Virus record (IMG/VR): IMGVR_UViG_3300028376_000003
Location: 64,001 to 128,000 of that record
DNA from: a virus
DNA: 64,000 nt
Strand: one strand, 5' to 3'
The stretch's first letter is position 1; each line of letters begins with the position of its first letter. A program made the position numbers and the translations under genes. Below the pieces are notes generated by a model, which was not told the origin of the DNA, did not search any database, and saw only the letters and a program-made list of their open reading frames with translations. Shown piece after piece: positions 24,309 through 43,033 of this stretch.

Positions 24309-24485
24309 ATGCTATTACATAACCACCTAGCTCAGGAGCAATTGCTTAGTCTATTGTTATTTTTTTTTGAAAGTATACTAATACCATACGTTATAATATT
24401 TTTTATTATACTATATATATTTAATTTCACAATTGCTTTTAAACTTAATGTAGTAATTTTAATATATAAGTAAATATGCTTTCAT

Positions 24486-25478: not shown

Positions 25479-25551
25479 CGCGGGGTAGAGCAGTAGGTAG
25501 CTCGCTAGGCTCATAACCTAGAGGTCGTTGGTTCGAGTCCAACTCCCGCTA
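25479..25551 (+). tRNA. tRNA-fMet (CAT), initiator type
   Basis: Cloverleaf; C1:U72 mismatch; ctagg-CTCATAA-cctag. Confidence 0.9.
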
Positions 25552-25571
25552 CAAATAAATAAATAAATAAA

Positions 25572-25655
25572 ATGAATACTTTTACTAACATAGAATATTA
25601 TTATGAAGAATCTGAACGAAAACGCTCGGCTAGTCTTTTGATGTCTATAATGTAA
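25572..25655 (+). CDS. Attenuator leader peptide 1 (MNTFTNIEYYYEESERKRSASLLMSIM)
   Basis: 27-codon ORF with GAA TAT TAT TAT GAA GAA TCT GAA, directly before a terminator and tRNA-Tyr/tRNA-Glu. Confidence 0.8.
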   Translation: MNTFTNIEYYYEESERKRSASLLMSIM

Positions 25656-25672
25656 ATTAAATTATAGTATAA

Positions 25673-25709
25673 AAAAAACCCAGTCTAGTAATATAGACTG
25701 GGTTTTTTG
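25673..25709 (+). terminator. Attenuator terminator 1
   Basis: aaaaaacccagtcta-gtaata-tagactgggtttttt. Confidence 0.9.
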
Positions 25710-26359: not shown

Positions 26360-26406
26360 TTTAAGAGGGAGAGTAAACTTTTAATATATAGTGTAATATA
26401 ACAATT

Positions 26407-26481
26407 ATGAGAACAATTAATAACATAGCAATAATAGCGATAGGCAAAGGGAAAACTCATTGGCTGGGAATTGTTATGTAA
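26407..26481 (+). CDS. Attenuator leader peptide 2 (MRTINNIAIIAIGKGKTHWLGIVM)
   Basis: 24 codons with ATA GCA ATA ATA GCG ATA GGC AAA GGG, before a terminator and tRNA-Ile(UAU)/Gly/Gly/Ala. Confidence 0.82.
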   Translation: MRTINNIAIIAIGKGKTHWLGIVM

Positions 26482-26504
26482 TTAATTTAATTATAAATTA
26501 TCAT

Positions 26505-26533
26505 AAACCCAGTCAGAAATGACTGGGTTTTTT
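26505..26533 (+). terminator. Attenuator terminator 2
   Basis: aaacccagtca-gaaa-tgactgggtttttt; 5' arm also pairs with tggctggg (26461-26468). Confidence 0.9.
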
Positions 26534-26547
26534 ATTTTATTATAAAT

Positions 26548-26621
26548 TGGTATGTAGCTTAGATGGTAAAAGCACATGGCTTATATCCATGAGATAGTGG
26601 GTTCGATACCCATCATACCAA
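26548..26621 (+). tRNA. tRNA-Ile (TAT)
   Basis: catgg-CTTATAT-ccatg; acceptor tggtatg/catacca. Confidence 0.88.
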
Positions 26622-26629
26622 CAAAATAA

Positions 26630-26703
26630 GCAGGTAACGCATAAGTGATGGTGCACTAGCCTTCCAAGCTAGAATAGAATCGGTTTGATCCCGATTACCT
26701 GCT
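26630..26703 (+). tRNA. tRNA-Gly (TCC)
   Basis: ctagc-CTTCCAA-gctag; U73. Confidence 0.82.
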
Positions 26704-26714
26704 CGATATAAAAT

Positions 26715-26788
26715 GCAAATGTAGCTCAATTGGCTAGAGTGTCTGATTTCCATTCAGAAAGTTGTAGGTTCGAATCCTATCATTTGCT
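26715..26788 (+). tRNA. tRNA-Gly (TCC)
   Basis: tctga-TTTCCAT-tcaga; U73. Confidence 0.88.
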
Positions 26789-26795
26789 CATTAAT

Positions 26796-26873
26796 GGGGG
26801 ATTAGCTCAGTCTGGTCGTAAGCGATAGCTTTGCAAGCTGTGTCATACATCGGTTCAAATCCGATATCCTCCA
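26796..26873 (+). tRNA. tRNA-Ala (TGC)
   Basis: atagc-TTTGCAA-gctgt; G3:U70 identity pair. Confidence 0.88.
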
Positions 26874-27165
26874 CAGCTTAATTAAAAAAAACAATAATTA
26901 TAGAAGATTTGAGTGCGAGATAGATAGAGAGAGGAGTAATTACTAAATTTGCATCAGATGAATTGGAGAAGTTGTCTAAAAATCATCAGGCTAGAAAATA
27001 TCAAAGCTTCACTATAGATAGGTGAGTTGTTGATATTGTGGACATGTCACCGATTTCTAAGCTAACAAATTCAGTAGATGTGATAGTTTATGGTGGTGAT
27101 TCATTAATGGAGATTTCTTAGAAACATATTAATAATATATATATAGAGAAAATGTACATATTATT

Positions 27166-37911: not shown

Positions 37912-38031
37912 ATGAAAAATTTAAACCTAAATACAAATAGAAACTTAACGCTCAATGTGGTGAATATTATGTTATGTAATAGACCATCTAGGGGTTCTAG
38001 TGTATTTAATAAATTTCATCTTATGACATAG
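37912..38031 (+). CDS. Attenuator leader peptide 3 (MKNLNLNTNRNLTLNVVNIMLCNRPSRGSSVFNKFHLMT)
   Basis: Codons 3-24 encode only N/L/T/R/V/I/M/C, the amino acids of the 11 downstream tRNAs. Confidence 0.82.
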   Translation: MKNLNLNTNRNLTLNVVNIMLCNRPSRGSSVFNKFHLMT

Positions 38032-38054
38032 TGAAATAAAAAATACAAATAACT

Positions 38055-38090
38055 AAAACCCCTAGAAATGAAAATTCTAGGGGTTTTTTT
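38055..38090 (+). terminator. Attenuator terminator 3
   Basis: aaaacccctagaa-atgaaaa-ttctaggggttttttt; 5' arm also pairs perfectly with tctaggggtt (37987-37996). Confidence 0.9.
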
Positions 38091-38268: not shown

Positions 38269-38276
38269 CAAATAAT

Positions 38277-38358
38277 CGGCATATACCAGCCCAAGCTGAT
38301 ACCTTGGAGAACTGTAGTTGGTAAGTTGAAAACGTAGGTTCGAGTCCTACTGTGCCGA
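38277..38358 (+). tRNA. Atypical tRNA-Ile (GAT): no D-arm, 26-nt variable region
   Basis: cggcata/tgtgccg acceptor, 7-nt linker, ccaag-CTGATAC-cttgg, gtagg-TTCGAGT-cctac. Confidence 0.7.
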
Positions 38359-38372
38359 CTTTTATGACACTT

Positions 38373-38566: not shown

Positions 38567-38647
38567 GCCTTAGTAGTCCCGATTGTCTTCTAAACAATTA
38601 AGGGTAATTGGAAGCTGAAAATATAGGTTCGAGTCCTATCTAGGGTA
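38567..38647 (+). tRNA. Atypical tRNA-Arg (TCT): no D-arm, 24-nt variable region
   Basis: gccttag/ctagggt acceptor, 8-nt linker, attgt-CTTCTAA-acaat, atagg-TTCGAGT-cctat. Confidence 0.7.
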
Positions 38648-42620: not shown

Positions 42621-42725
42621 ATGAAAAATTTAAACTTAAACATAGTAGTTAACCCTCAACCCCAAGTTGATATCGATCAGGATTCTGATACGAAAGGTGC
42701 TAACTATGTTTTAAATTTAAGTTGA
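42621..42725 (+). CDS. Attenuator leader peptide 4 (MKNLNLNIVVNPQPQVDIDQDSDTKGANYVLNLS)
   Basis: PQPQVDIDQDSD block before a terminator and (Asp-Gln-Pro)x2 tRNAs. Confidence 0.82.
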   Translation: MKNLNLNIVVNPQPQVDIDQDSDTKGANYVLNLS

Positions 42726-42743
42726 TATTTAAATAATAAAAAC

Positions 42744-42783
42744 AAAAACTCGGTTAGTCTTTTAGATTAACCGAGTTTTTTTT
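42744..42783 (+). terminator. Attenuator terminator 4
   Basis: aaaaactcggttagtct-ttt-agattaaccgagtttttttt. Confidence 0.9.
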
Positions 42784-42959: not shown

Positions 42960-43033
42960 CGAGAAGTGACTAAGGTTATAAGCACGGGTGCATTGGAGGC
43001 ATCAGTTAGCAGGTTCGATTCCTGTCTTCTCGA
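42960..43033 (+). tRNA. tRNA-Pro (TGG)
   Basis: ggtgc-ATTGGAG-gcatc; C1:G72, A73; weak D-arm. Confidence 0.78.

Follow-up and report, generated by a model that had tools for sequence, protein, structure and literature searches.

A putative leader-peptide attenuator with an AUA-rich leader ahead of a tRNA-Ile(UAU) operon in a very large phage

Why a short open reading frame (ORF) with four AUA codons should stand directly ahead of a terminator and a tRNA-Ile with the anticodon UAU is the question raised by the locus described here, referred to as Att2. The window that was analyzed comprises positions 64,001 to 128,000 (64,000 nt) of IMG/VR virus record IMGVR_UViG_3300028376_000003. The record has a length of 141.5 kb and is ~20% complete by CheckV, and therefore represents only part of a very large phage. 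The G+C content of the contig is 28.7%, and ATA is the majority Ile codon, with a share of 64%, and accounts for 5.8% of codons overall (genome shares of Ile codons: ATA 0.64, ATT 0.31, ATC 0.06). Alternative genetic codes were rejected and table 11 was kept because reading through TAG or TGA hardly alters the coding density. The relatives used for comparison are related phage contigs from pattern scans plus five complete or nearly complete phages, from which the tRNA regions were taken, and together with the window they provide 52 distinct leader/array pairs. Most matches in the terminator-pattern and leader-pattern scans of viral contigs were unrelated, and the loci kept are those with tRNAs 3' of the terminator. 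Patterns combining the promoter with the leader start, and a Val-Val-Asn...Leu-Cys pattern, were too unspecific on viral contigs and were set aside, and a 43-codon ORF picked by the detector in L360 was excluded as not leader-like.

Organization of Att2 and its sister units

The tRNA genes of the window all lie within four arrays, which share a layout consisting of a TTAATATATA motif, a short ORF, a strong terminator, and a first tRNA that begins 8-15 nt past the T-run, and each of the four leaders favors the amino acids carried by the tRNAs that follow it (Table 1). The coordinates and sequence features given for Att2 in an earlier note on this DNA all hold, base for base. The leader carries ATA at codons 7, 9, 10, and 12, GCA at codon 8, GCG at codon 11, GGC at codon 13, and GGG at codon 15, and eight of the nine codons of the sensor block encode Ile, Ala, or Gly, compared with a background of 17% (p = 6e-6). 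The terminator begins 23 nt past the leader ORF, with a GC-rich stem and a hairpin energy of -16.6 kcal/mol, and its arms (CCCAGTCA...TGACTGGG) are nearly identical among relatives. The first tRNA begins 15 nt past the T-run of Att2, leaving no room for a separate promoter. This gene folds into a cloverleaf with a TAT anticodon, as expected for tRNA-Ile(UAU); charging with Ile and the reading of AUA, not AUG, depend on the isoleucyl-tRNA synthetase (IleRS) and the ribosome. The first tRNA-Gly(TCC) gene is missed by ARAGORN at its default setting and scores 44 bits with Rfam, compared with a cut-off of 29 bits. Two uncultured phages, with lengths of 635 and 642 kb, have a leader, terminator, and tRNA-Ile(TAT) homologous to Att2, and the start and stop codons of the leader are kept in nine homologues from other phage contigs, with indels in the ORF being mostly multiples of 3 nt.

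Table 1. Positions of the features of Att2, of its sister units in the window, and of AUA-related genes in relatives
Feature	Position	Strand	Remarks
Promoter-like motif AAACTTTTAATATATA	26375-26390	+	16 nt 5' of leader ATG; promoter role putative
Att2 leader ORF	26407-26481	+	24 codons, then TAA stop
Region 1, 5' strand of long protector hairpin	26415-26432	+	Includes class-independent AAC-ATA; from MFE folds
Sensor block, codons 7-15 (ATA GCA ATA ATA GCG ATA GGC AAA GGG)	26425-26451	+	I-A-I-I-A-I-G-K-G
Antiterminator 5' strand TGGCTGGG	26461-26468	+	10-19 nt ahead of stop codon
Region 2, 3' strand of protector hairpin	26470-26487	+	Across stop codon; from MFE folds
Intrinsic terminator	26505-26533	+	11-bp stem 26505-26530, GAAA loop, six T at 26528-26533
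tRNA-Ile, anticodon TAT (reads AUA)	26548-26622	+	ARAGORN; Rfam 67.3 bits
tRNA-Gly, anticodon TCC (first copy)	26630-26703	+	Rfam 44 bits; ARAGORN at lowered threshold
tRNA-Gly, anticodon TCC (second copy)	26715-26789	+	ARAGORN; Rfam
tRNA-Ala, anticodon TGC	26796-26874	+	ARAGORN; Rfam
Att1, Tyr/Glu-rich leader (25572-25655) and terminator (25676-25708)	25572-25708	+	5' of tRNA-Tyr, tRNA-Glu
Att3, Leu/Asn/Thr/Val/Cys/Arg/Ile/Met leader and terminator	37912-38090	+	Ile codon is ATT; array with tRNA-Ile(GAU) 38270-38365
Att4, Asp/Gln/Pro leader and terminator	42621-42783	+	5' of Asp, Gln, Pro tRNAs
TilS N-domain genes (relatives)	L238:1462-2049; L237:1453-2049 (LR745206, LR756502); G001 near 259.8 kb		TIGR02432
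IleRS genes (relatives)	L378:748-2955; L379:776-3004		TIGR00392

The locus contains the elements expected of an attenuator, namely a short ORF 5' of the genes, a cluster of regulatory codons, and an intrinsic terminator between leader and tRNAs, and a mutually exclusive antiterminator acting on the 5' arm of the terminator is found in silico. Where the classical scope of attenuation covers biosynthetic or synthetase proteins, the downstream genes of Att2 are four tRNAs.

The TTAATATATA motif occurs in 18 copies in the window compared with 3.2 expected, a sixfold excess; it is located 5' of all four window leaders and is kept 5' of eight of the nine homologous leaders. Sites such as those at 24459, 25453, 26381, 37896, and 42604 are positioned 6-16 nt ahead of start codons, with only 6-7 nt to the ATG in leaders 3 and 4, a spacing that suggests TTAATATATA is a phage promoter whose transcripts have a very short 5' leader or none.

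Several further observations concern the units of the window and their relatives. An initiator-like tRNA-Met (25479-25552, with C1 opposite U72) stands 3' of the promoter motif and 5' of leader 1 and its attenuator, and the same order is seen in L001, L015, L038, and L039; a position outside attenuation fits this tRNA, because an initiator tRNA has no sense codon through which it could be sensed. The Asp/Gln/Pro array contains an extra tRNA (42960-43033) that is missed by ARAGORN and scores 30.4 bits with Rfam, just over the cut-off. Most Ile/Gly/Ala leaders (L001, L002, L009, L027, L038, L171, L204; alignment A1, columns 93-106) share a GC-rich core in which GGCGCGGG precedes AGCG or a similar sequence; the window leader is without this core and has AAA codons at those positions. 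Additional leader classes in relatives are Ser/Arg, Phe/His/Trp/Lys, Gln alone, and Pro/Thr/Ala/Val/Gly, and a merged leader (L023:8770-8922; L364) mixes Ile, Gly, Tyr, Ala, and Glu codons before a Glu/Tyr/Gly(ACC) array. Judged from this leader, sensor blocks appear to be reshuffled together with arrays.

Leader codons and downstream anticodons

The sensor codons of the leaders correspond to the arrays that follow them at two levels. With homologous leaders counted as independent, so that p-values are optimistic and the figures represent upper estimates of support, 451 of 918 sensor codons match their array in amino acid, compared with 151 ± 21 when arrays were permuted (maximum 236 in 5000), and 395 of the 439 relevant sensor codons are readable by anticodons of their own array, compared with 362.6 ± 6.0 after resampling (maximum 383 in 3000). 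Standard wobble was assumed in the codon test, and synonymous codons were redrawn from genome usage. The match is specific to the reading frame, amounting to 44% in the ORF frame compared with 11.5% and 9.2% in the other two.

The Ile codons are divided by isoacceptor: ahead of Ile(UAU), ATA fills 18 of 23 sensor-block Ile positions, and ahead of Ile(GAU) 0 of 7 (Fisher p = 4e-4, homologues counted as independent). An array that holds both Ile tRNAs has ATA at 0 of 2 leader Ile codons. The Ile(GAU) arrays with ATT or ATC leaders belong to the Leu/Asn/Thr class, represented by Att3 in the window and by several relatives. Within the central block of the nine Att2-homologous leaders ATA is used 26 times, ATT once, and ATC three times, and the Ile codons at the edges of Att2-class leaders (ten leaders) are ATT in six cases and ATA in one. 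The 23 Ala codons of nine aligned Att2-class leaders all belong to the pair GCA and GCG, which UGC reads, with GCG accounting for 18 of them (78%) compared with a genome share of 3%; the rare codons GCG, GGC, and GGG are strongly enriched in leaders of this class. For Arg, the leaders use CGC or CGT ahead of Arg(ACG/GCG) and AGA ahead of Arg(UCU), and the Ser codon AGT is present in L007, which has Ser(GCU), and absent from L023, which is without it.

The ATA run of the window leader is unremarkable when taken alone. The 141.5-kb contig contains 27 six-codon windows with at least four ATA in its six frames, four ATA among six leader Ile codons corresponds to the background usage of 64%, and the ATA at codon 7 is part of an AAC-ATA motif found in all leader classes, including those of arrays without a tRNA-Ile. 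The weight of the run comes from its position and its conservation in relatives. Other codons of the leader lack a partner: GGC, the commonest Gly codon of the Att2 leader class (13 of 29) even where UCC is the sole Gly reader, has no standard-wobble reader in the Att2 array (anticodon UCC), and there is no tRNA-Lys downstream for the AAA codons 14 and 16. The isoacceptor-level match proposed in the earlier note is supported by the family-wide codon test and by the Ile and Arg splits, and not by the ATA run alone, which is at background usage. Taking the sequence comparisons together, we consider it moderately likely that sensing is truly resolved by isoacceptor.

The same note had stated that the sensor reports tRNA availability and not amino-acid level. 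This is an overstatement, because a stalled ribosome reports charged tRNA and the sequence alone cannot separate the two. A classical amino-acid sensor would respond to starvation for Ile, Gly, or Ala via uncharged tRNA, with codons that follow phage usage and contain no isoacceptor information. Such a sensor would be expected to have four ATA among six Ile codons, is compatible with a GGC codon unmatched by UCC, and accords with the inability of a stalled ribosome to distinguish a missing from an uncharged tRNA. However, the genes regulated are tRNAs, and an extra tRNA gives no relief from amino-acid starvation. The same phage, moreover, would sense Ile twice, with different codons ahead of different isoacceptors, and both the restriction of Ala codons to GCR with its excess of GCG and the tracking of the anticodons present by the Arg and Ser codon boxes speak against codons that simply follow genome usage. 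A classical amino-acid sensor is accordingly an unlikely explanation for the leader.

Antiterminator pairing and a possible mechanism

The MFE fold of Att2 comprises the terminator and a long protector hairpin, in which the stop-codon region pairs with a 5' portion of the ORF that includes AAC-ATA; a long-range protector hairpin of this kind is predicted in nearly all of the 16 elements folded. The fold of the whole region has a z-score of -5.9. Pairing of 26461-26468 with the 5' arm of the terminator (26508-26515), noted earlier from the sequence, is confirmed and involves eight pairs, one of them G-U. The energy of this duplex is -13.6 kcal/mol, compared with -6.9 ± 1.6 kcal/mol in 1000 dinucleotide shuffles (p = 0.001), and the antiterminator duplex of Att3 is likewise significant (p < 0.001). 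Ribosome-masked folds were calculated by masking the covered RNA and folding only the RNA made before the 3' arm of the terminator. With the modeled A site at codons 7-13, the full 8-bp antiterminator is predicted to form at -15.0 to -15.6 kcal/mol, compared with -16.6 kcal/mol for the terminator, and moving the A site to codon 15 would leave six antiterminator pairs. With the ribosome modeled at the stop codon, the antiterminator 5' strand is masked and the terminator alone forms. In 14 of the 16 elements folded this way, the 5' arm of the terminator pairs with a segment 10-30 nt 5' of the stop codon.

The antiterminator core TGGCTG/CAGTCA is kept in eight of the nine homologues, with one compensatory change from U-A to A-U in L171, and 80% of the cells of the Att2 alignment are paired at the core, compared with at most 41% in slid controls. 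The shortness of the Att2 antiterminator and a covariation signal consisting of a single double change count against a switch. In the window fold the G-rich sensor codons pair with the antiterminator strand in an apical hairpin, and the G/C-ending sensor codons may be partly selected for RNA pairing.

The duplex energy is no better than in shuffles for Att1, for Att4, and for several relatives, and truncated-RNA folds suggest multi-helix alternatives for these units. Weak or non-significant duplexes in several units would be expected if there were no switch, and the small ORF, of a kind easily found in any DNA, had another function or none and were followed by a constitutive, leaky terminator that ends upstream transcription or fixes a low tRNA level. 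This explanation is opposed by the significance of the Att2 duplex, by a conserved geometry across units (17-34 nt from stop codon to hairpin and an antiterminator strand 10-30 nt before the stop), and by a frame-specific leader-array match that lies far beyond permutation at both the amino-acid and the codon level, and we regard it as very unlikely.

Comparison with Rfam (curated leader families Thr_leader, His_leader, Trp_leader, and others; T-box; riboswitches) gave no match at the gathering score, and the matches seen were sub-threshold chance ones, for instance Thr_leader with 23.6 bits compared with a cut-off of 55 and on the opposite strand. An RNA-only switch, in which an untranslated leader binds tRNA anticodons through codon-like triplets in T-box fashion or has some other RNA role, would suit the strongly structured region and an ATG without a preceding Shine-Dalgarno sequence, but it is extremely improbable given the missing T-box or other Rfam family match, the conserved start, stop, and frame with indels of mostly 3 nt, the confinement of the match to the ORF frame, and the arrangement of the sensor codons in runs like those of known leader peptides.

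Att2 probably controls the tRNA-Ile(UAU)/tRNA-Gly(UCC) x2/tRNA-Ala(UGC) operon as a ribosome-mediated (leader-peptide) transcription attenuator. From its anatomy, conservation, and codon matching we infer translation of the leader, stalling, and read-through, which most likely follow a three-state logic of the trp/ilv type. Transcription would start at the promoter motif, and the 24-codon leader would be translated while RNA polymerase advances. If AUA, GCR, and GGN are read fast, the ribosome would arrive at the stop codon and cover the antiterminator 5' strand, the terminator would form, and the tRNA genes would be off. If no ribosome is loaded, the hairpin between regions 1 and 2 and a small apical hairpin would hold the same strand, and the terminator would again form. 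If charged readers are scarce, a ribosome stalled at codons 7-13 would allow the strand to pair with the 5' arm of the terminator, and with this antiterminator formed the polymerase would read through and the tRNAs would be made. Since stalling on the sensor codons would give read-through, a shortage of readers would induce the tRNAs that read those codons, and the net effect would be negative feedback on decoding capacity, or tRNA supply.

Known attenuators and the decoding of AUA

Leader-peptide attenuation is textbook knowledge for amino-acid operons, and a full-text literature search returned no account of tRNA operons being controlled by attenuation, whether in phages or elsewhere. The enterobacterial leaders ilvL (ilvGMEDA), thrL, hisL, and trpL are multivalent leader-peptide attenuators of amino-acid operons. 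The features they would share with Att2 are a translated short ORF, a run of regulatory codons, an architecture of protector (1:2), antiterminator (2:3), and terminator (3:4), the position of the ribosome as the determinant of termination, and several amino acids per leader. In contrast to these systems, Att2 is encoded by a phage and would control tRNA genes rather than biosynthetic enzymes, and its sensor codons are the codons of its own anticodons, so that the loop would close on decoding capacity. The pheM-pheST system of E. coli, in which a leader peptide controls an aminoacyl-tRNA synthetase operon, resembles Att2 in attenuating a component of the translation apparatus and not amino-acid synthesis, whereas it controls a synthetase protein for one amino acid without partition at the isoacceptor level. 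In the leader of the leu operon, rare CUA codons tune sensing, and there too the choice of synonymous codons sets what is sensed and with what sensitivity; the output of the leu leader is amino-acid synthesis, whereas the Att2 codons track downstream anticodons. T-box elements have in common with Att2 that the state of a specific tRNA is sensed via a codon-like specifier and a terminator/antiterminator switch, but they bind uncharged tRNA directly, are untranslated, and control synthetase or amino-acid genes, whereas Att2 has a conserved ORF.

For giant phages in general, we lean toward a demand-driven control of tRNA supply that is resolved to the codon, in which every tRNA operon would stand behind a matching leader-peptide attenuator and the ribosome would act as a gauge for each isoacceptor. 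The sequence-based codon pairs would be AUA with UAU, AUU/AUC with GAU, CGY with ACG/GCG, and AGA with UCU, and a tRNA set would be turned on when the tRNAs of the host run short, fit the AT-rich codons of the phage poorly, or are destroyed by tRNA-cleaving defences. If this is true, phages gauge the speed of elongation at individual codons and respond with matching tRNAs, which would explain the expression of large tRNA arrays only when they are needed, tie the system directly to host tRNA depletion and to anticodon-nuclease defences, and offer natural, compact, and codon-specific sensors for reporters and synthetic biology. AUA is the sharpest test of demand control: it has dedicated readers only (lysidine-CAU or UAU), and the clade invests heavily in reading it.

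In most bacteria AUA is read by a lysidine-modified CAU tRNA (PMC3575796; PMC3919564). The IleRS of E. coli charges a UAU-anticodon tRNA poorly, and the UAU tRNA of Mycoplasma mobile needs an adapted IleRS and ribosome (PMC3575796). UAU anticodons, described in the earlier note as rare, are indeed rare in bacteria but not in the Att2 class, where UAU belongs to the first tRNA in 10 of the 10 arrays examined. A protein with the catalytic N-domain of TilS was found in three of the five relatives searched, with 108-111 bits compared with an NCBIfam cut-off of 93.6. These proteins have 195-198 residues, contain nothing but the N-domain (TIGR02432), and are encoded a few kb from the Ile/Gly/Ala attenuator. 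One relative has a CAU tRNA within its Ile/Gly array, and two relatives encode an IleRS of 735-742 residues (TIGR00392, 674-696 bits) that ends at profile position 803 of 861. Neither TilS nor IleRS was found in the window's own contig, which says little, as the record represents only about a fifth of the genome. The suggestion that the phage bypasses lysidine is not supported, given that relatives encode a TilS-like enzyme and an IleRS of their own and have a CAU tRNA within the same array; the presence of these genes indicates several routes to AUA, and the clade therefore appears to add AUA-reading capacity rather than to escape lysidine. Lysidine escape as the purpose of the Att2 unit is doubtful. 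The clade is comparable to Mycoplasma mobile (PMC3575796) and to B. subtilis without tilS (PMC3919564) in having a UAU tRNA-Ile as AUA reader, and it differs from both in that this tRNA lies under an AUA-containing attenuator and is accompanied, in relatives, by a TilS-like gene, a CAU tRNA, and a phage IleRS.

The UAU tRNA of Att2-class arrays is either canonical or of an odd form without a D arm and with a long variable arm. This odd shape with a UAU anticodon is seen in L015 (5808-5890), L171, and L204, and a 'Pyl(cta)' call by ARAGORN in L015 was rejected on reading the sequence, as the anticodon loop holds UAU. Two tRNA genes of the window (38270-38365 and 38567-38647) are similarly odd: the D arm is reduced or missing, and the variable region is long and ends in a sequence resembling GTTGAAAAC. 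They are the Ile(GAU) of the Att3 array, with the anticodon loop CTGATAC, and Arg(UCU) (Rfam 39 bits), and ARAGORN misses or miscalls such genes. In a 508-kb relative (L363; G002, ~407.4-409.1 kb), ARAGORN at a lowered threshold calls a candidate tRNA with a TTA anticodon within a Phe/His/Trp/Lys array, which would read the stop codon UAA.
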